From Eledone cirrhosa (Eukaryota): a stretch of 64,000 nucleotides of DNA. Shown here in pieces: positions 5,323-64,000 of this stretch. The notes below the pieces were generated by a model that worked only from the letters and a program-made list of their open reading frames with translations, ran no database searches and was not told where the DNA came from. The translations under genes were made by a program, and so were the position numbers. The stretch is from contig OZ024757.1 in the NCBI GenBank assembly GCA_964016885.1, forward strand, positions 35,898,001 to 35,962,000. The letters run 5' to 3'. The number at the start of each line of letters is the position of its first letter. The first letter of the stretch is position 1.

Positions 5323-6202
5323 CAGGGTGCGGATGATATTTGTTTGCAAGATTACTGTCTAGGAAAAAATAACACTAGTTTTGTTTTTTAAGATTTATTT
5401 ATCAAACTTGGGTCAGTTTGTCTTCATGACTTGTTCTTTCGATCTCACTCCATAAACCCACCATTGGCTTTGATGACGGCCTCAAGGCGGCCTTGGAACC
5501 GGCTACAGGCCTTCATCACTCTCCCCTGACTTAGGCACTTGTGATCCTGGCCTTCAGATCGTCTTTCGTATTGCAGCTAGATCTGTTGGTGTCTCGTTCC
5601 ACTGCGCCCCACACAAAGAAGTCGAGGGGGTTGCAGTCAGGTGAGCTGGGAGGCCAGATGTCAGGTGAAGTGTGGTCGACGAAGTTCTCTGACAGCCAGA
5701 CTTGGGTCTTTCGGCTGGTGTGGCAGGGCGCTGAGTCTTGCTGCCACACATACGGCCTACCTGCAGCTACCTGGTCGATCCAGGGCTTTACTACCTCGCT
5801 CAGAATGCGGATGTAGCCATCGGTGTTCAGCTTGAGGCCCTCAGGGAAGAAGTGAGGTGGCATGACGTCACCTTGACTGCTGACAACACCTAAGACCAAT
5901 GTTGTCGCTGGAAACTTTGTCTGCATGACTCTGGGCACGTCTTTGGATGAGACAGCGAGCCACCTGTTGTTCTGGGAGTTGATCTTCTGGTCTTATTTGT
6001 CCTCCCGGCGTGAATTCCAAGAAGAACTCCGTGTCTCTTCCACAAATTTGGAGGTTCAAAATTATTCATAATCATTTATTCTGAAAATAAATAATGGAAA
6101 TATAGTCACTGTTTTTATGAAGACAAGAGTGACAACAGAAGAAAAAAAAATTTGCATAAAATTAGCAGTTGAAAATTGTGAACAAATATCGTCCGCACCC
6201 TG
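5323..6202 (-). mobile_element. Tc1/mariner-superfamily maT (DD37D) transposon, internally deleted
   Basis: 22-bp TIRs CAGGGTGCGGA(T/C)GATATTTGTT flanked by TA. ORF 5531..5938 has WQQD-x37-D (SPDCNPLD). The N-terminal DNA-binding part is missing. Confidence 0.92.
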
Positions 6203-10266: not shown

Positions 10267-10383
10267 TTTTTATGCCTGAAAAATATAAGGACATTCTTAC
10301 AGACATGCAAGAAGGTGTTTGGATTAAAAGATCAGGATTTGTTTGATCCTCCAGATTTGTTTGATGTGAAAGATTTTCGGAAG
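10267..10383 (+). CDS. VAV: Vav-family GEF, exon 2 (CH domain): [39 protein letters not shown]
   Basis: tttcag acceptor, AAG|gtaggt donor, 117 nt, phase 0-0. Translation closely matches the Vav CH segment [11 protein letters not shown]...FDLFDV.DF.K. Confidence 0.95.
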
Positions 10384-13547: not shown

Positions 13548-13603
13548 GTTTTGTATACATTGTCGAAACTTTCTAAAACAGAACTTGCTCAAAAGACTGC
13601 CAG
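13548..13603 (+). CDS. VAV: Vav exon 3 (end of CH domain): VLYTLSKLSKTELAQKTA+AG
   Basis: Polypyrimidine tract + ctcag acceptor, AG|gtaaga donor, 56 nt, phase 0-2. In frame with exon 2; resembles Vav VIYTLSALS..IAQ. Confidence 0.92.
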
Positions 13604-18095: not shown

Positions 18096-18120
18096 TATAT
18101 ATATACACACATACATACAT

Positions 18121-20202
18121 TGGAAGAAAGACAGTCTCCCCCACATCGACCCAATAGAGGGACCAGCAGTGTTAGTCGAGGGTAGTATAATAAGTAAGGC
18201 AATCAAAGATATGAAGACAGGCAAGGCGGCTGGGCCTTCGAAAATAGTTGCCGAGATGCTGAAGGCATCTGGTACGGTGGGACACACCATGGTCACCCGG
18301 ATAGTCAACCAAGTCATACAGAATGGGGTTGTTCCGAAGGACTGGCGCAGCAGTATTATCGTTAACTGTTATAAGGGTAAAGGAGATGCCCTAGATAGGA
18401 GTAACTATAGAGGCATTAAATTAATCGACCAGGTCATGAAGGTCACGGAAAAAGTTATAGCGCAACTAATCAGAGAGCGAATTGATCTAGATGAAATACA
18501 GTTCGGGTTTGTGTCAGGAAAAAGTACCACAGACGCTCTTTTCATTGTACGACAACTACAGGAGAAGTACCTAGCTAAAAGTAAACCCCTATACTTAGCT
18601 TTCGTCGACTTGGAGAAGGCCTTCGACAGAGTCCCCCGTTCCATTATCTGGTGGGCTCTTAGAAAACTAGGTGTTGATGAATGGCTTGTGAGAGCTATAC
18701 AAGCCATGTATAAAGAAACAGTCAGCAAGGTTAGAATTAACAACGAATATAGTGAAGAGTTTAGTGTAAAAGTTGGTGTTCATCAGGGCTCTGTTCTTAG
18801 CCCCCTACTATTTATTATTGCCCTCCAGGCTATAACAGTGGAGTTCAAGACCGGCTGCCCATGGGAACTCCTATACGCAGATGATCTAACGCTCATAGCT
18901 GAATCAATGGCCGAGCTAGAGAAGAAATTCCAAACATGGAAGCACGGCCTAGAATCAAAAGGCCTTAAAATTAACCTGGCTAAGACTAAAGTTCTAGTTT
19001 GTAAGAAAGAAAATAAGGTGGCGGTCCCCTCCGGGAAGTGGCCATGCGCAGAGTGTAGGAAAGGCGTAGGTAGAAATTCCATTTTGTGTCCCAAATGCAA
19101 AGTTTGGGTGCATAAAAGATGTAGTGGGATCACAGGTAAGCTAACTAAGAACATAGATTTTACATGTGGCCGGTGTTCTGGGGAAATAAGTAGCAGCAAG
19201 TGCCCACAAAATACTAGCTCTTTCAACTGCGCAGAGGGTTCTATAGAAATAGTGGACAGCTTCCGTTACCTGGGTGACAAAATCAGCAGTGGGGGAGGGT
19301 GCTCTGAAAGTACAGTAGCTAGAGTCAGAACTGGGTGGAAAAAGTTCAGAGAGCTTATACCGCTATTAGCCGCTAAAGGGTTCTCCCTAAAAATGAAAGG
19401 CAGGCTGTACGATGCCTGCATACGAACAGCAATGTTGCATGGCAGTGAGACCTGGGCATTGTGTGCAGAGGATATATGCAGACTAGAGAGAAACGAAGCT
19501 TGCATGCTCCGCTGGATGTGTAATAGTAATATACGTGAACGACAAAGCATAAACGAACTAAGGAAAAAATTAGAAATAAGAGGGATCAGATGTTGTTTAC
19601 TAGAGAGAAGGCTACGTTGGTATGGTCACGTGATGCGCATGAAGGACGATAGCTGTATAACAAAGTGCAGGGCAATAAAGATAGACGGTAGCCATGGAAT
19701 AGGCAGACCCAGAAAAACCTGGGACGAGCTGATAAACTCCGACCTCACACACTTACACCTCACCAAGACAATGTCACTGGACCGAGACCTTTGGCGGTAC
19801 TCAGTAATAGAGAAGACTCGCCTTACCTAAATACAAAGTAAAACCTACTACAGTCAGTAGGCATCTCTAACAAAATACACCCACGTCCCACCACCCCCAC
19901 CCCATCCACACTGCCCCCTTCTATGTAAAGTTATGTTGGTGCCACACCATCCAGGCCGAAACAAATGAGATCGTGTAGGTGTCACGACAAAAAAACACAC
20001 AGTCCACGCTGTAATGTGGCCGTGTAGGCAACACGGTAAAAACCTCCCAGACCCACACTGTAAATGTGGTTGGTGTTAGGAAGGGCATCCAACTGTAGAA
20101 AACCTGCCAGACAGTCCTATGCGAGCAAGACAATCACTCTTGCCTCAAGTGGGAATACCCCCGTCCAAACCCATGCAAGCGTGGAACACGGACGTTAAAC
20201 GT

Positions 20203-28040: not shown

Positions 28041-28165
28041 TTTAAAATGTATTTTGTCATTTACTACTGGTTATCGTGATCTTTGTTACTGGCTGAATCC
28101 CCAACCCTGACCTTCGTTATTTTGGTCTTTTACCATTCTATTGCTCTCCTTTTTCTCAATTGTAG

Positions 28166-28240
28166 AGGGTTCTCTCCCCCTGATACGAGATCTCTCCCTG
28201 TTGAACATGACTATTACAACACATTGGAAGATCTTGCAAC
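28166..28240 (+). CDS. VAV: Vav exon 4a (acidic region, Y142-equivalent): (R)GFSPPDTRSLPVEHDYYNTLEDLA(T)
   Basis: ttttctcaattgtag acceptor, AC|gtaagt donor, 75 nt, phase 2-2, no stops. F-x-P...D-Y-x-x-L pattern of the first Ac exon. Confidence 0.8.
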
Positions 28241-29423
28241 GTAAGTGCCATGATGCAGTCCTTGGGGTGACACTCCAAAAAACTGCTTGATTAAAAAAAC
28301 CCCACTCTCACTCACTCTTAAACAGGTTCAAGGATCAATGTAACCCACCCTCAAGTCTCTTCCTAAACCACCCATCTTTCCATCCATCTTCAGCTTAACT
28401 TTATGCCATCTGTGTTTCCAATATATTATTAAAATAATATATTTGGGAGCAGTTTTATTATTTTATAAATATCTTTTTCGCTTTTTGCTTTTGCTAACTG
28501 TAGTAGTAGTAGTAGTAGAGCTAATAGTAGTAGTAGTTGTGGTTTGTGAATGTGTTGGAGGAGCTGGTGACGTCAGACATCACATGATGTGTGCAAGTTT
28601 TTTGTGGGCAATAACCACACTGGAGCAGAGAAAGAAGAAAAGAAGTTGTCAAACTGTGACTACTGTTACCATTGCTGACAGACAGACAGACTGACTGACA
28701 CTCATTGACTGTTGTCGTTAAACTATTTTTCTATGCATGTTATTTTGTCTGTGTGTGTATGTATATATACATATTGAAAGTGGACGTTAAATGATAATAT
28801 GTGTATATGTATATACATATATATGTGTGTGTATATATATATATTCAAAATAGCGGTGACACAGGACAAAGACAACGAAAAAAAGCAATGGAAAGATGGA
28901 CAATCCCATCTCCTCAGTCAACCTCTGGTAATCACTACAGTTTTGGTGCATTAAGGTTGATACTATTCATTCCAGTGCACATTGGGACATAATAGAACAG
29001 GTAGAGACAAGTTATACCTTTTGGCAGTGTGTGTGTGTCTGTTTGGTTAAGTTGTGAAGCACTGAGAAATTTGAAAATAAAGTGACCACAATACAGATAA
29101 ACTATAAATAATGGTTGAAAAAATTCAATTATAGGAAAAAGTTAAAGGTTCTTTATCTGATTTATTTATAGTTATTAACTATTATTATCATTATCTGCAG
29201 TGTGGCAACTATATTTTCACATTTCACACACAACACATATATTCTTAATAGTTTAACTAATTTCTATTGGTGTGTTTATGTCTGCTGATTGTCTAACATT
29301 TATTGGTACATTTGCCTGTAAGAGAATGTGTGTGTGTCGGCATAATGCAAGCATGTACATAATCTAACCCAATAATACTGAACCTCACTACTAAAATCTT
29401 ATTAACTGTCACATTATTATTAA

Positions 29424-29790
29424 GGGTTGGATGCTATGCTTTGCAGCATAGTTAAGGCCTTTTACGGTCTGAGTTCAAATCTCGCCAAGGTTAACTTTGC
29501 TTTTTATCCTTACTGGGTTGATAAAATAAAGTACCAGTAATGCACTGGGGTAATTGCTGGCCTTGTGTCAAAAGTAGAAATGTTATTATTGATAAGGTGA
29601 TGTATTGACAGTTGCAGTAGAGTGTTGGACAAGATGCTTTGTAACATTTACTTATGGCCCTTTATGTTCCGAGTTCAAATCCGGCATGTCTGCTTTTCAT
29701 CCATCCAGCAGGTCAGTAAAATAAAGTACCAGTAATGCACTGGGATAATTGCTGGCCTTGTGCCAAAAGTAGAAACAATTATTATTATTA
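29424..29790 (+). mobile_element. SINE family A, two tandem copies
   Basis: Family A core and (TTA)n tails. Confidence 0.8.
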
Positions 29791-29964
29791 TTAGGTGAAG
29801 TGGTATAATCTGTTCAATATCCAATACGGTATCAATGAGCAACTAAGATCTCTGTATAAGTTTTATTAATGGCTGCCATTTCTAAAACTACTTTCTCTTT
29901 TGTTGGCATCATATCACTTCTTTTGATAGCTACAGATAGCTTCCTTCATCTAGCTGGATATTTA

Positions 29965-30830
29965 CCAATACCACCATCACTACCATCAACACCACCACCA
30001 CCACCACCACCAACACCACCACAACAACAACAACCAACTCCACCATCACAACCACCAACACCATCATCACCATCACAACCACCACCGCAACCAATACCAC
30101 CACCGCCAACACCACCATCACAACCACCACCACCAACACAACCACCATTACCATCAACTCCATCAATACCACCAACACCACCACAACAACAACCAACTCC
30201 ACCATCACAACCACCACCGCAACCAATACCACCACCACCACCACAACCAACGCGACCACCAACACCACCATCACAACCAGTACCACAACTAACGCTGCCT
30301 CAACCAACACAACCACCACCACCACCACCACCATCACAACCAACACCACCATCACAACCAGCACCAACTCCACCACCAACGCCAATACCACGACCACCAT
30401 CACAACCAACACCACCACGACCACAACCAACACCACCACTATTATGACCATTTTGCTCCCCTTCTCAGGTCCACCCAAAACACACTCTCACACTCCCTAC
30501 CTAACCCCCCTAACTCACTCTCCCTACCTACCCTCTCTCACTCTACCTAACACCCCCTCTCACTCTACCTAACCCCCCTCTCTCACTCTACCTACCCCTC
30601 TCTCACCCTACCTACCCTTCTCATTTTACCTACCCCCCCCCTAATTCACTCTACCTACCCCTCTCTCTCTCTACCTACTCCTCTCTCATTTTACCTACCC
30701 CCTATCTCACTCTACCTACCCCCTTTCTCACTCTCTACCTACCACTCTCTCACACTCCCTACCTACCCTATCTCTCACTCTCCCTACCCCCCCCCCTCTC
30801 TCACTCTCTCTACCTAGCTTCACTCTCACT
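29965..30830. repeat. (ACC)n-type and CT-rich low-complexity repeats
   Basis: Direct inspection. Confidence 0.9.
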
Positions 30831-31050
30831 CTTACTAATTCTACTCAGCAAAGTGAGGAATTCTCTTAGATCAACTCTGCTGCATTCAGAAACCATTTTT
30901 ATCACTAAACTGTCCTCTCATACATCACACTGCATCTCTTATCTTCTTTATCAGAGTGAGGGAGAATTTTGGTTGTGTGTTGAATATAATCTTTATTGAT
31001 AAGCACTTTACCCCATAACATAGACACAGTAAATAAAATCTGTCCACGAT

Positions 31051-31370
31051 GGAGGCACATGGTTTAGTGGTTAGAGCATTGGGCTTGCAATTGAAAGGTT
31101 TTGAGTTCAATTCTCAGACCGGGTGATGTGTTGTTTCCTTGAGCAAGACACTTTATTTCACATTGCTCCAGTTTACTCAGCTGTAGAAATGAGATGAGAG
31201 GGACTGGGGTCCATATCATTCCACTGTAAAGTGGTTGTGGAGGTGCCACGGCAAAAAAGCACCCAGCACTCACTGGAAGGGCATCCAGCTGTAGAAATCA
31301 AGCCAGAATCAGTTCCCGTCCCACCTTTGCAAGCATGAAAAAGCGGACGTAAAATGAAATGAATGAAATG
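31051..31370 (+). mobile_element. SINE family B
   Basis: Near-identical to the 14364 copy, with a short internal deletion. Confidence 0.88.
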
Positions 31371-31773
31371 ATGTATGTAAAAGGTAAACAGAAATAACAA
31401 TAGAATCGGTACAGTATATGGAAAGGATATATTAGGTTAACGCTTGATATAGCAGGAAGAGGGTGTTAACGTTTCGGACGCTAGTCCTTCATCAGAAGAA
31501 AGAATGAGAAATTAGATAGATTGAGGGGATGAAGGTTAGAGAGATAGTGAGAAATATATTAAGGAAGGATCAACTCCAGTACTTGAATGGTACTTTTTTT
31601 ATCAACCTTGGAAGGAAAAGTTGAGCTCAGTAGGATTTGTACTGAGAAAGCAGAGAGCCAGAACAAATACCGCAAGGCATTCTCATCTGATGTGCTAATG
31701 ATGTCTGCCAATTTGCTACATATTTATATATATATATGTCTATGTGTGTTTATATATATAAACACACACACAG

Positions 31774-31855
<82 letters not shown>

Positions 31856-33409
31856 TTCCCTTGACTTTCTGGCAAATTGAGAGATCTGTGTATAAGTGCA
31901 GAGAAAAAAAGAAATGAAATAAAAATAGGTAGAAAAAATGATAAAAAAGTGAGAAAGTGAGAGATGATGGAGCGCGGTGGGGGTTATGGGGGGAATGCTA
32001 ATTATATTGGCAACTGATGTATCTCTAAATATTGCAGGCAAGCCTCCAACTGTACCTTATGAATTCTAATAGAATTAGATGTGAACTGCTCTGCCAATGT
32101 TGTGTGGCCTAGTGGTAAGTGTGTTGAACTTAGGAACATAATGTCGTGGGTTTGATTTTGGGGTTGTGTGTTGTGTTCTTGAGCAAGACACTTCATTTCA
32201 CGTTGCTCTTGTGGTGTGTTGGACTTACAATCATAATACCGTGGGTTTGATTCATGTTGCCCCAGTATACTCAGCTGAAAAGGAGTACCAGCAATAGCTG
32301 GAGGTTTAACCCTGCGACTGGCATCTTGTCCAGAGGGAAAGTCTTGTACTCTCAGTCACTTCCCACAACACCGGGATAAGTCCTGCCTGATTAGCCTCCA
32401 GGTTCGAGACAGACTTTAGATTTTTCAGCCAATGGTGATACAAGCTTTAATAAGCCAATACTACAATTGCTACTAACACCTCGTTAACTCTTTTGATTCC
32501 AAACCACCTGAAGCCATCTTGTTTCTATAACACTGTTTGATTTGATGTTTCTTGTTTTCTTAAAAACTTTGCATCATAATTCTATTTAAGAGCCTTTAAT
32601 TTATGTTCCAAACACCAATTTAATGTAAATCACTCCAAATTCATCTCCAATCTGTTACTGGTACTTTATTTAATCAACCCCCATGATGAGGCAAAGCTAA
32701 CTTCGGTGGGATTTGAATCCAGAACGTAAAGGGCTGTAAAGGAATAGTAATGATGATAATAATTGTTTTTACATTTGACACAAGAAGAAGAAACGGGAAT
32801 GTTGACTAAATCGGTCCCAGTGCATTACTGGTACTTTATTTTATCAACAGGATTTGAACTGAGAATGCATAGTGCTGTAAGTATATGCTGCACAGCATGT
32901 TGTCCGATGTTCTACCGACACTCCCAATCCACTGCTGCAATAACAACAATGGTTTCTTTGTTAACCACAAAGGGTTCGCATAAAAAAACCCATAGAGTGT
33001 GTGTTGGTGTGTGGACTTTGCATGTAACAAATTTTTAAAATGTTAAAAAAAAAAAGATAATAAAACTAAAACAAAGGAGCTTCCTCAATAGGGAGGAGAC
33101 GTTGAGTCATTCGTGGAAATAAAACCACAGATGCTCTGATGTTTAGGGTAAGTGCCCTGTCCCAGTGGTACTCCTACAATTTACAGGCTCACACTCAGAG
33201 CGGGCCCATTCACTCAGGTCATACTTGCTTCTCTCACCCATCTTTCAACAAATTACTTTGAAGGCAGCACTTCTCCCTCTACCCCGATTTTCCTCCTCAA
33301 GTGGAACCTGAAAAAGTTAATCAAGGCTTCTCCAAAGAATGAACTGCTCGTTCAAACCTTTCAAGCATGTCCACCATACAACCTCTTTTACCATGGCCAC
33401 AAGGCATAT

Positions 33410-35240
33410 AAAAAAAATAACAGTAATAGTAATAATAACAGTAATATTAACATTAATAGTAATAATAATAGTAATAGTAACAGTAATAATAATAACAGTA
33501 ATAGTAACAACAGTAATAGTAATAATAGTAGTAATAACAGTAATAACAACAGTAATAATAACAGTAGTAATAATAATAATAACAACAGTAATAACAACAG
33601 TAGCAATAACAATAGTAATAACAGTAGTAGTAATAGTAATAACAGCAGTAATAATAGTAGTAATAACAGCAGTAATAACAGTAGTAGTAATAGTAATAAC
33701 AGTAGTAATAACAGTAGTAGTAATAGTAATAACAGCAGTAATAACAGTAGTAGTAATAGTAATAACAGCAGTAATGATAGTAGTAATAACTAATATGTTA
33801 GCAAGACAGAAATCAAGCTTCATTCCTCTTTCAGTGTTTTGCTTCATGATTCTTAGTTGAAAGACTTTGATACAATATTGATACCAATACAGTACCAGTA
33901 CTGATACTAACATACCAATACAGTACCAGTACTGATACTGATATACCAATACAGTACCAGTACTGATACTGATATACCAATACAGTACCAGTACTGATAC
34001 TAACATACCAATACAGTACCAGTACTGATACTAACACAATATTGATACCAATACAGTACTAATACAGTACTAACATACTAATACAATATTGATATTGATA
34101 CTGATACAATACCAATACTAATACAATACAGTACCAATACTAATACTAATACAGTACCAATACTAATACAAATACAATACAGTACCAATACTAATACAGT
34201 ACCAATACTAATACAATACAGTACCAATACTAATACAATACTAATACAATACAGTACCAATACTAATACTAATACAGTACCAATACTAATACAATACAAA
34301 TACAATACAGTACCAATACTAATACAATACAATACAATACTAATACAATACAGTACCAATACTAATACAATACAATACAGTACCAATACTAATATAATAC
34401 AATACAGTACCAATACTAATACAATACAATACAGTACCAATACTAAAACAATGCAATATTAATAATAATGTAACAAAAATATATGAACCAATCAGAACAC
34501 TTGCTTTATTCTGACCTCGATGAACATTGAACTTTCTGACTTGACAGTTCTTGTGTGTGTATATCTGTTGTGTGTATATCTATGTTGTGTATATATCTGT
34601 TGTGTGTGTTGTGTGTATATATCTATGTTGTGTGTGTTGTGTGTATATATCTATGTTGTGTGTGTTGTGTGTATATATCTGTCGTGTGTGTTGTGTGTAT
34701 ATATCTGTTGTGTGTATATCTGTTGTATGTGGTGTGTGTATATCTATGTTGTGTGTATATCTGTTGTGTGTATATCTATGTTGTGTGTGTTGTGTGTATC
34801 TATGTTGTGTGTGTATCTATGTTGTATGTATATATGTTGTGTGTGTATCTATGTTGTATGTATATATGTTGTGTGTATATCTATGTTGTGTGTGTATATA
34901 TGTTGTGTGTATATCTATGTTGTGTGTGTATCTATGTTGTGTGTATATCTATGTTGTGTGTGTATCTATGTTGTGTGTATATCTATGTTGTGTGTGTATC
35001 TATGTTGTGTGTGTATCTATGTTGTGTGTGTATCTATGTTGTGTGTGTATCTATGTTGTGTGTATATCTATGTTGTGTGTGTATCTATGTTGTGTGTATA
35101 TCTATGTTGTGTGTGTATCTATGTTGTGTGTATATCTATGTTGTGTGTATATCTATGTGTGTATGCCTATATCTGTGTGTGTCTGGCTCTGTGTGTGTGT
35201 GTATGTCTGTATGTGTGTCTATATGCATATGTCTGTGTGT
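33410..35240. repeat. Compound satellite block: (AAT/AGT/AAC)n, (AATAC)n-type and tgtgtatatctatgt-type repeats
   Basis: Direct inspection; ends about 280 nt upstream of exon 4b. Confidence 0.9.
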
Positions 35241-35517
35241 GTGACTTCAAATATCAATAAGTTAGTAGATTCTACCCATAGTTGACAACAGTGTTGGTGT
35301 TTCATGTTGTTTGGTCTGAGAGCAATGGTTAGCAGTAGAAATAGTTGTGGAATGACAACTGACTCTCGAAATCAAAATGGTGGTGGTGACAACCACCATG
35401 ACAATAACCATCAAATGGTTATTAAGGGCCATTGATGGTGGGTCAATTTCTTTACCCAGATAAACTCGTGTTGTTGTGTTGTAGCTTAGCTTTTTTGTGT
35501 CCTTCATTTGCTTGTAG

Positions 35518-35595
35518 CGAGTTTCCACCGTTTGTAGAAACACAGGAATGTGGTGATGATGAAGACATCTACAGCAACCTTAAAGAGATGGCTTT
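35518..35595 (+). CDS. VAV: Vav exon 4b (paralogous acidic-region exon): EFPPFVETQECGDDEDIYSNLKEMA(F)
   Basis: ccttcatttgcttgtag acceptor, TT|gtaagt donor, 78 nt, phase 2-2. GDDEDIYSNL closely resembles VAV1 GDEDIY142SGL. Confidence 0.88.
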
Positions 35596-35779
35596 GTAAG
35601 TATTATTTGATCCTTCAATGTTGATCTTAAAAATGATGTCTCTAGGGATGGGACGTTGAGCCTTGAACCTGGCTTATCTATTCATTCATAACTCTTCTCT
35701 CTCTCTCTCTCTTTCTCCCCCTCTCTCTCACTCATTTATATATATTTATTTATCATATCAATGTCTTTATAAGAGTATA

Positions 35780-45921: not shown

Positions 45922-46024
45922 TGATTTACCAGACGATCATGAAGTCTACAACAAAGAGACACAGGATGATAATCAACAGATATATGAGGATTTGTGCTCA
46001 CTTAAACGTAAATCCACGTCACAG
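45922..46024 (+). CDS. VAV: Vav exon 5a (Y160/Y174-equivalents): DLPDDHEVYNKETQDDNQQIYEDLCSLKRKSTSQ
   Basis: gactttttccag acceptor, CAG|gtaacg donor, 103 nt, phase 2-0. Contains IYEDL, the Vav Y174 autoinhibitory motif. Confidence 0.88.
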
Positions 46025-53758: not shown

Positions 53759-53867
53759 TGAAAATGACTTGGATGATAACCAGGACTTGTACGATGTTGT
53801 GTACGATGGTGAGGAAGACGAACAAATTTATGAACATTTGTGTAGCAGAAATCAGAGATTCTCCACA
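53759..53867 (+). CDS. VAV: Vav exon 5b (paralogous to 5a): ENDLDDNQDLYDVVYDGEEDEQIYEHLCSRNQRFST
   Basis: acatctag acceptor, ACA|gtaagt donor, 109 nt, phase 2-0. DLYD (Y160-like) and IYEHL (Y174-like) motifs. Confidence 0.86.
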
Positions 53868-56354: not shown

Positions 56355-57580
56355 TGGGTGCATAAAAGATGTAGTGGGATCACAGGTAAGCTAACTAAGA
56401 ACATAGATTTTACATGTGGCCGGTGCTCTGGTGCAATAAGTAGCAGCAAGTACCCACAAAATACTAGCTCCTTCAACTGCGCAGAGGGTTCTATAGAAAT
56501 AGTGGACAGCTTCCGTTACCTGGGTGACAAAATCAGCAGTGGGGGAGGGTGCTCTGAAAGTACAGTAGCTAGAGTCAGAACTGGATGGAAAAAGTTCAGA
56601 GAGCTTATACCACTATTAGCCGCTAGAGGGTTCTCCCTAAAAATGAATGGCAGGTTATACGATGCCTGCATACGAACAGCAATGCTGCATGGCAGTGAGA
56701 CCTGGGCATTGTGTGCAGAGGATATACGCAGACTAGAGAGGAACGAAGCTTGCATGCTCCGCTGGATGTGCAATAGTAATATACGTGAACGGCAAAGCAT
56801 AAACGAACTAAGGAAAAAATTAGAAATAAGAGGGATCAGATGTTGTTTACTCGAGAGAAGGCTACGTTGGTACGGTCACGTGATGCGCATGAAAGACGAC
56901 AGCTGTATAACAAAGTGCAGGGCAATAAAGATAGACGGTAGCCACGGAGTAGGCAGACCCAGAAAAACATGGGACGAGCTGATAAATTCCGACCTCACAC
57001 GCTTACACCTCTCCAAGACAATGTCACTGGACTGAGACCTTTGGCGGTACTCAGTAATAGAGAAGACCCGCCTTACCTAAATACAAAGTAAAAACCTACT
57101 ACAGTCAGTAGCCATCTCTATCAAAACACACCCCCATCCCACCACCTCCACCCCATCCACACCACCCCTTTCAATGTAAAGTTATGTTGGTCCCACAACA
57201 TCCAGGCCGAAACAAATGAGATCGTGTAGGTGTCACGACAAAAAAACACACAGTCCACGCTGTAAATGTGGCCGTGTAGGCAACACGGTAAAAACCTCCC
57301 AGCCCCACACTGTAAATGTGGTTGGTGTTAGGAAGGGCATCCAGCTGTAGAAAACCCGCCAGACAGTCCACGCTGTAATGTGGCCGTGTAGGCAACACGG
57401 TAAAAACCTCCCAGCCTCACACTGTAAATGTGGTTGGTGTTAGGAAGGGCATCCAACTGTAGAAAACCCGCCAGACAGTCCTATGCGAGCAAGACAACCA
57501 CTCTTGCTTCAAGTGGGAAAACCCCCGTCCAAACCCATGCAAGCGTGGAACACGGACGCTAAACCTGATGATGATGATGA
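56355..57580 (+). mobile_element. Second 5'-truncated copy of the young RTE LINE
   Basis: Highly similar to about 19105-20220; CGA>TGA stop at 57033-57035; about 113-bp tandem duplication in the 3' UTR. Confidence 0.95.
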
Positions 57581-60795: not shown

Positions 60796-60995
60796 CAAAT
60801 TACTTCAAAATAGTTGAAATAATTGTTTTTTTTTTGTTTTTTTTTTATCTTTTTCTTTTAGTTTGATGTTGATGACAATGATGATGATGATGATAAATTG
60901 CCTGTAAAACCGTAAAATTGGTGTTTTTTGAAATTGTGTTGTAGCTATTATATGCTGGTTAATCTGTCTTATAGCTTCTTTCTGCTTACTTACAG

Positions 60996-62966: not shown

Positions 62967-63035
62967 CATTTTAGTAAACCTCTCCGAACTGTCTTACAAC
63001 CACAAGACCGAGAAATCATATTCAAGCACATAGAA
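62967..63035 (+). CDS. VAV: Vav exon 7 (DH): HFSKPLRTVLQPQDREIIFKHIE
   Basis: tttcag acceptor, GAA|gtatgt donor, 69 nt, phase 0-0. Resembles VAV1 HFLKPL...L.PQD.EIIF.NIE. Confidence 0.93.
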
Positions 63036-63893: not shown

Positions 63894-64000
63894 CCTCTCT
63901 TGGAAGTTCATCAAGCCTTTCACAGTGAACTATTGAAAGCCTGTTCGAAAGGTGTCCCTAAAATTAGTGAGGTATTCATCAAACATAAACCTAAATTTCT
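63894..64000 (+). CDS. VAV: Vav exon 8 (DH), runs off the window: PLLEVHQAFHSELLKACSKGVPKISEVFIKHKPKF(L)
   Basis: Long pyrimidine tract + gtctag acceptor, phase 0, open to the window end. Resembles Vav LL.VH..F....VFIK.K..FL. Confidence 0.9.

Follow-up and report, generated by a model that had tools for sequence, protein, structure and literature searches.

Two related, alternatively used exons at the start of the acidic region of vav in Eledone cirrhosa

Does the vav gene of Eledone cirrhosa choose, by splicing, between two versions of the exon that opens its autoinhibitory acidic region, and if so, how old are the two versions? The question is raised by two short neighbouring exons, 4a and 4b, in a stretch of 64,000 nucleotides that we refer to as the window (positions 35,898,001 to 35,962,000 of the forward strand of contig OZ024757.1, assembly GCA_964016885.1). 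Our reading, to which we give a probability of about 0.72, is that 4a and 4b are related exons of a single vav gene, each spliced to exon 3, that they likely derive from one old tandem duplication, and that they are likely used mostly one at a time, which likely changes the phosphorylatable tyrosines at the start of the acidic region.

The exon pair and its splicing

The exons on which the argument turns lie in the order 3, 4a, 4b, 5a, 5b, 6; those up to 5b are as follows.

13548..13603, + strand: vav exon 3, end of the CH domain, phase 0-2; joined to 4a or 4b, as read from contig loose ends
28166..28240, + strand: exon 4a, 75 nucleotides, phase 2-2, with the twin-tyrosine motif HDYYN; spliced to exon 3 in runs X22, X5 and X7; conserved to Lingula
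35518..35595, + strand: exon 4b, 78 nucleotides, phase 2-2, with the acidic motif DEDIY at the Vav1 Y142 position; spliced to exon 3 in 4/4 runs; aligned to Vav1 (PDB 6NF1/3KY9)
45922..46024, + strand: exon 5a, 103 nucleotides, phase 2-0, not combinable in frame with 5b; joined to 4a in run X5
53759..53867, + strand: exon 5b, 109 nucleotides, phase 2-0, with the Y160 and Y174 positions; joined to 4a in X7, and to 4b in X5, X7 and X8

Contigs of four of the 24 listed sequencing runs were examined, separately for 4a and 4b, and junctions were read from the loose ends of the contigs. Both junctions exist, 3-4a in three of the four runs (X22, X5 and X7) and 3-4b in all four, while a contig joining 4a to 4b was found in none (0/4). 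Run X22 is identical to this genome (0 differences) and has contigs 3-4a (depth 23.8) and 3-4b (8.2). Both end 3 letters past exon 4, which would fit a branch to 5a and 5b, because these two exons both begin with TGA. In run X5 the contigs 3-4a-5a (depth 56.5) and 3-4b-5b (97.3) cover the whole of exon 5 unbranched, X7 contains 3-4a-5b (depth 4.8) and 3-4b-5b, at low depth, and X8 has one contig of 2843 nucleotides with 3-4b-5b. No 4a contig was found in X8, which is no proof of absence. Each exon is therefore used without the other in X5 and X7, and presumably in X22, where the downstream exon is the putative branch. The spliced contigs exclude a pseudo-exon or an assembly artefact, and they show neither of the two outcomes that a first-pass annotation of this DNA had named as fatal to its idea of a combinatorial phospho-switch cassette, namely transcripts that always include both exons or a 4a that is never spliced in.

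The two exons have the same acceptor (..ttgtag) and donor (gtaagt) and encode similar peptides (4a, GFSPP..EHDYYNTLEDLA; 4b, EFPPF..DEDIYSNLKEMA). Their protein alignment scores 28, where shuffled sequences average 2.7 (p=0.0004, 5000 shuffles), their DNA is also more similar than expected (p=0.006, 500 shuffles), and across species the mean 4a to 4b score is 28.9 against -13.8 for shuffled sequences. The pairwise test alone is not specific, as the similarity of 4a to 5a likewise exceeds chance (p=0.007). Adjacent, homologous, of equal phase and of similar length, 4a and 4b qualify as tandem exon duplication-derived substitutions, and the duplication that the first-pass annotation saw in their shared plan is borne out. 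So is its point that both are phase 2-2 and that any choice of exon 4 keeps the frame: of the 16 subsets of the exon-4 and exon-5 pairs, the 8 in frame are exactly those with one exon 5; the frame leaves exon 4 free (either one, both or none) and demands a single exon 5. Its argument that the order 4a, 4b, 5a, 5b implies two separate single-exon duplications is sound, and the same order excludes a block duplication of exons 4 and 5. No third exon-4 copy was found in the window or, among the best candidates scored, in the genome, and a third copy was rejected for want of a further window match. Single exons used as sequence queries found no match in the PDB.

Exon 5 has doubles elsewhere as well. 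Arthropod models have an exon-5 pair alongside an undivided exon-4 stretch, but this pair is not clearly orthologous to that of molluscs, and pairwise scores give no support for orthology. Two alternative exon-5 versions occur in chelicerate and insect Vav models (P0088/P0097, P0091/P0096, P0107/P0280 and P0318/P0344); the "EDLCYVT"-type exon 5 scores poorly against mollusc 5a, and the exon-5 duplication may be independent.

Tyrosine motifs and the age of the pair

Exons 4b and 5b together carry the three regulatory tyrosine positions of human Vav1: the IY of 4b aligns at Y142, and 5b has the Y160 and Y174 positions. The Vav1 numbering is taken with an offset of 3, based on the Vav1 start and on the 18/14 spacing. 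The two exon-4 versions differ in what surrounds their tyrosines. YYN is found in 15 of the 16 4a copies compared and in 0/27 of the 4b copies, [IV]YxxL in 27/27 of the 4b copies, and the six residues preceding the tyrosine contain on average 1.6 aspartates and glutamates in 4a versus 4.15 in 4b. The 4a exons of E. cirrhosa and of Lingula are near-identical around YYN. The first-pass annotation, which held that the Y142-equivalent exon had been duplicated, needs correction on this point: only 4b is the Y142 exon, and 4a, with its HxYYN, is not simply a second one. In scallop, mussel and clam, exon 5a has one tyrosine and no Y160 equivalent, and 5b has three.

A phylogeny of the exons across molluscs, which the first-pass annotation had suggested as a check, was built for exon 4. 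Segments were cut from 51 hand-picked proteins of 374 stored, and both exons of the window were added; the tree omits one mis-cut Ixodes segment and an odd Tegillarca model. The 16 4a rows are split from the 27 4b rows by a 99/93 branch, and the two kinds stay separate across molluscs and Lingula. In 16/16 taxa with the full pair, 4a is closest to the 4a of another taxon and 4b to another taxon's 4b. The duplication is common to cephalopods, a chiton, bivalves, gastropods and Lingula, so that an octopus-specific origin is rejected. Because each exon groups with its own kind across the 16 taxa, the simplest reading is one tandem duplication before the mollusc-brachiopod split, a dating that comes from sequence comparison. 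The first-pass annotation is borne out on the duplication itself, and the trait is old and common to molluscs and a brachiopod. Its proposal that splicing-based diversification stands here in place of the Vav1/2/3 paralogs is a hypothesis.

What was duplicated can be approached through protein models of other groups. Chelicerates, myriapods and one nematode have both motifs in a row, H[DE]YYNDDIYRNLE, and the insect, crustacean and deuterostome proteins examined have the second motif only, the deuterostomes showing DIY without YYN (YYN in 0/7). In 115 of 144 pairwise alignments, the YYN of 4a aligns to the upstream YYN of the arthropod and nematode stretches, with a five-residue gap. A profile of nine such stretches has 4a and 4b as its two best matches in the window, 4a through the first half of the profile (E=9e-4) and 4b through the second (E=0.12). 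On this evidence, the duplicates likely divided an ancestral two-motif exon between them. The ancestral protostome exon would have held an upstream HxYYN and a Y142-type DIY; after the duplication, 4a would have retained YYN and dropped DIY via a five-residue deletion, and 4b would have retained DIY and dropped YYN. Ticks (P0090-P0101) keep HDYYN and have lost the Y142-type tyrosine, a 4a-like state, and group with 4a in the tree.

Isoforms among relatives and competing readings

Public protein models, which are automated, redundant and uneven across species, give a broader view of exon use. Of 189 proteins from molluscs and Lingula, 182 allowed scoring: 124 have 4b only, 48 have both exons, 10 have 4a only and 0 have neither. 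For octopods, 18 proteins (15 of 29 and 3 of 3 members listed from two clusters) comprise 6 with 4b only, 4 with 4a only, 5 with both and 3 truncated at the N-terminus. Chiton models have 4a or 4b, Lingula models show all three states, and those of scallop, mussel, abalone and Littorina have 4b only. The 4a and 4b isoforms are therefore already present, unremarked, in automated annotations. All six combinations (4a, 4b or both, each with 5a or 5b) occur among the models of relatives. Of the four isoforms, or up to eight, that the first-pass annotation had foreseen, the combinatorial use with 5a and 5b stands and the combinations lacking any exon 4 do not (0/182). We do not class the pair as strictly mutually exclusive: both exons stand together in 48/182 models and in 0/4 runs.

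How freely the two choices combine is a question of its own. The exon-4 and exon-5 choices might be coupled, giving two main isoforms, 4a-5a and 4b-5b, that mark two cell types without free combinatorics. The unbranched contigs of X5 pair the exons in just this way, X8 has only 4b-5b, the assembly-derived decapod-like proteins P0020 (4a-5a) and P0142 and P0143 (4b-5b) agree, and Mercenaria has 4a only alongside 5a (10 models). Yet X7 joins 4a to 5b, if at low depth (4.8), the contig ends of X22 would fit a branch to both 5a and 5b, and 4a-5b and 4b-5a both occur among the models, so that we regard coupling as possible but somewhat unlikely. Still less is to be said for 4a as an optional cassette before a constitutive 4b that extends the acidic region by two tyrosines. 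The 5/18 octopod models with 4a and 4b together (among the cluster members listed), a similar Sepia model, and models of oyster, Biomphalaria, Babylonia and Patella, in which 4a alone is not seen, speak for it, but in the three runs with 4a the 4b contig starts with exon 3, unbroken, and 4a continues to exon 5 (X5, X7), and models with 4a alone are known from octopods, Sepia, chiton, Mercenaria and Lingula. This makes the cassette the least probable of the alternatives considered here.

It is only slightly more probable, and still quite improbable, that 4a and 4b are interchangeable Y142 modules whose choice barely affects Vav activity. Both exons end in YxxL-x-[DE]-x-A, where a helix is predicted in both, eleven mollusc taxa have 4b only among the models seen, and Y142 is a lesser site than Y174 according to the accessible part of a review (PMC4601183). 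Nonetheless, the two exons have retained distinct motifs in 16 taxa that range from octopods to Lingula, with the near-identity around YYN already mentioned, and 4a differs from relatives at 6/77 bases where 4b differs at 10-11/77. As to the origin, the direction could be reversed, with two exons ancestral in protostomes and the arthropod and nematode YYN-DIY stretch a fusion of them. The stretch does look like the first part of 4a joined to the last part of 4b, and the deuterostomes have DIY without YYN (0/7). On the other hand, a lone upstream H/Y is seen by eye in several 4b copies and deuterostome exons (chiton, Haliotis, Babylonia and a hemichordate) and fits a two-site ancestor, and nemertean and Owenia models show one exon-4 stretch. 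We consider a fusion unlikely, and retain the division of a two-motif exon as the likely course.

Several observations count against the reading that we favour. Both exons stand together in 48 of the 182 models. For C. virginica, 12 of the 15 models listed have both, 4a alone is found in none and the rest are 4b only, and in this species 4a looks like an optional add-on. Contigs lose rare forms, give no inclusion levels and carry no tissue labels, so that they show main routes only, and the RNA status of the listed runs, X22 included, is not on record, which counts neither for nor against, although the X22 contigs are spliced. YxN is also present in 24 of the 27 4b copies, i.e. a Grb2-type site is not unique to 4a. 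The tree behind the 99/93 branch has 26 columns and an unsettled bootstrap, with Ixodes, two nemerteans and Owenia on the 4a side. In 29 of the 144 alignments YYN is not paired with YYN, and a gapless register that puts the second tyrosine of 4a on Y142 (YxxL) is also possible, though a five-residue deletion would place that tyrosine at Y142 anyway. The nine stretches of the profile were picked for YYN and are known from proteins, their one-exon status being assumed. Lastly, AlphaFold models of 4a+5b and 4b+5b have a predicted local distance difference test score (pLDDT) of ~55-60 over both exons and do not tell the isoforms apart, and the 4a model also had a different C-terminus.

The locus, the control of the choice and its proposed effect

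One vav gene spans the window on the + strand, as found by tblastn of two full-length Vav proteins against the window and 200 kb flanks; its last exon lies ~57 kb downstream of the window. The two queries were recovered through a search with exon 5b, and one of them clusters with an Argonauta hians model. The gene looks single-copy because its exon 1 matches the 3.0-Gb genome once (among 5 candidates scored), and a second vav gene was rejected for the same reason. The exons of the Vav protein P0001 map in order along the locus, and its Pfam domains, CH-Ac-DH-PH-C1-(SH3)-SH2-SH3, follow the order of the Vav family. The Vav protein matches human Vav1 at E=3.5e-133, and the best fold match of the predicted model is autoinhibited Vav1. 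The other exons located are listed below.

G000:C18:35847340, + strand: vav exon 1, ~50.5 kb upstream of the window
10267..10383, + strand: vav exon 2 (CH domain); tblastn 100% to P0001
60975..61094, + strand: exon 6 (start of the DH domain), with two in-frame acceptors at 60975 and 60996
62967..63035, + strand: exon 7 (DH)
63894..64000, + strand: exon 8 (DH), continuing beyond the window end

The gene has other alternative events, and the first-pass claim that its isoforms vary only the tyrosine region was too narrow. The exon 6 acceptors are 21 nucleotides apart, a difference that adds LLSAYLQ to the part linking the Y174 helix with the DH domain; models of relatives include each form. A 21-nucleotide microexon (IVDKLFW) in the PH domain (L003 ~6009-6029), 16 kb past the window end, is optional in relatives' models and has a 166-nucleotide AG-free zone. 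In 9/19 octopod models (P0004-P0016; near L007:7060-7300) a threonine-rich tail replaces the normal end of the C-terminal SH3 domain, which could be due to misannotation of a 3' untranslated region rich in repeats. Two similar reverse-transcriptase-like retroelement fragments lie in vav introns (window ~18100-19500 and 56400-56900), and C2H2 zinc-finger repeat arrays (HTGEKPY..C..C) lie just upstream of exon 1, 58-77 kb upstream of the window (L015-L014).

The intron between 4a and 4b has 7277 nucleotides and all splice sites are GT-AG, so any exclusivity is not due to frame, intron size or splice-site class. Because neither frame nor intron size enforces it, it would be regulated and leaky. 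The intron consists largely of long imperfect tandem repeats (window 29960-30440 and 33400-35200). Three elements were noted near the two exons.

28107..28111, + strand: branch-point-like CTGAC, 59 nucleotides before 4a, a motif match only
28326..28352, + strand: weak candidate duplex arm, which would loop out 4b
35643..35665, + strand: weak candidate partner arm of the duplex

The CTGAC sits in a 216-nucleotide AG-free zone, the second longest of 28 acceptors and partly an ATT repeat. Counts of splicing-factor motifs were not decisive: TGCATG occurs three times within 1 kb of 4a and is absent around the five remaining exons, its density over the window being 0.375/kb. A complementarity screen flagged 8 of 55 region pairs, three on TA/TG-repeat remnants, and follow-up of four flagged pairs left one marginal duplex, of -26.1 kcal/mol, equalled by 1/100 shuffles and 3/80 random intron windows after the 55-pair screen. 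It resembles the docking-site and selector RNA structures of mutually exclusive exons in linking the introns downstream of 4a and 4b, but differs in its marginal statistics and in that no competing second selector was found, and it is a weak lead only.

Acidity near a tyrosine would guide Src- and Syk-type kinases. Exon 4b would supply the standard acidic Y142 site, and 4a would replace this single site by a less acidic twin-tyrosine site like the YYN of Shc; the swap would alter kinase preference and SH2 docking, and hence the activation threshold. In the accessible parts of two reviews, from which the structural contacts of Y142 are also taken, Y142 and Y160 contribute to keeping Vav closed and become phosphorylated when it opens (PMC4601183, PMC6767298). 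The E. cirrhosa gene is like the Vav family (human Vav1; PDB 3KY9, 6NF1) in domain order, fold and the Y142, Y160 and Y174 positions of 4b and 5b, but Vav1 has one Y142 stretch and no YYN, whereas in the single-copy vav of E. cirrhosa the acidic region includes two pairs of alternative exons. The Shc YYN (Y239/Y240) recruits Grb2, more strongly if doubly phosphorylated (PMC11342145 and PMC11630764, as far as their accessible text goes), and 4a likewise has YYN, which matches pYxN, within a poorly ordered linker. This is a three-residue resemblance for which no homology is claimed, 4b has YxN in 24/27 copies, and Grb2 binding by 4a is putative. A wider and tentative proposal, which we would not expect to hold in full, is that a protostome ancestor had two phosphotyrosine motifs in one Vav exon, the autoinhibitory Y142 site and a docking site with a Shc-like YYN, that this exon was duplicated before the mollusc-brachiopod split with one motif kept per copy, and that splicing toggles Vav between an adaptor-docking and an autoinhibited state, with cell-type-specific pairing with the choice of the Y174 exon.

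The pair belongs to a known kind, that of tandem-duplicated alternative exons, and is not cephalopod-specific. With the substitutions catalogued in human (PMC9741552, accessible text, e.g. FYN B/T), it shares adjacent homologous exons of similar length, equal phase and ancient origin, with core residues kept and alternative use. It differs in that the lengths of 4a and 4b are multiples of three, dual inclusion being in frame and found in models, and in that two such pairs stand back to back. In the literature searched, which excludes most subscription journals, we found no published description of a Vav exon-4 pair. VAV occurs 0 times in the available main text of that catalogue, and vav is absent from that of PMC9013439, although the supplements of either could list it; "isoform" and "splic" are absent from the available text of a 2019 review of Vav-family evolution (PMC6562523). 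A 2014 review (PMC4601183), in its accessible part, states in general terms that splicing yields Vav isoforms in all species, and that nothing is known of the signalling specificity of these isoforms.

Vav is the standard example, among guanine nucleotide exchange factors, of layered tyrosine autoinhibition. In this gene it is the regulatory tyrosines that splicing exchanges, an arrangement that octopods share with a brachiopod. The pair is a likely case of two motifs divided between duplicated exons, and 4a and 4b are natural variants for probing the contribution of the Y142 region.

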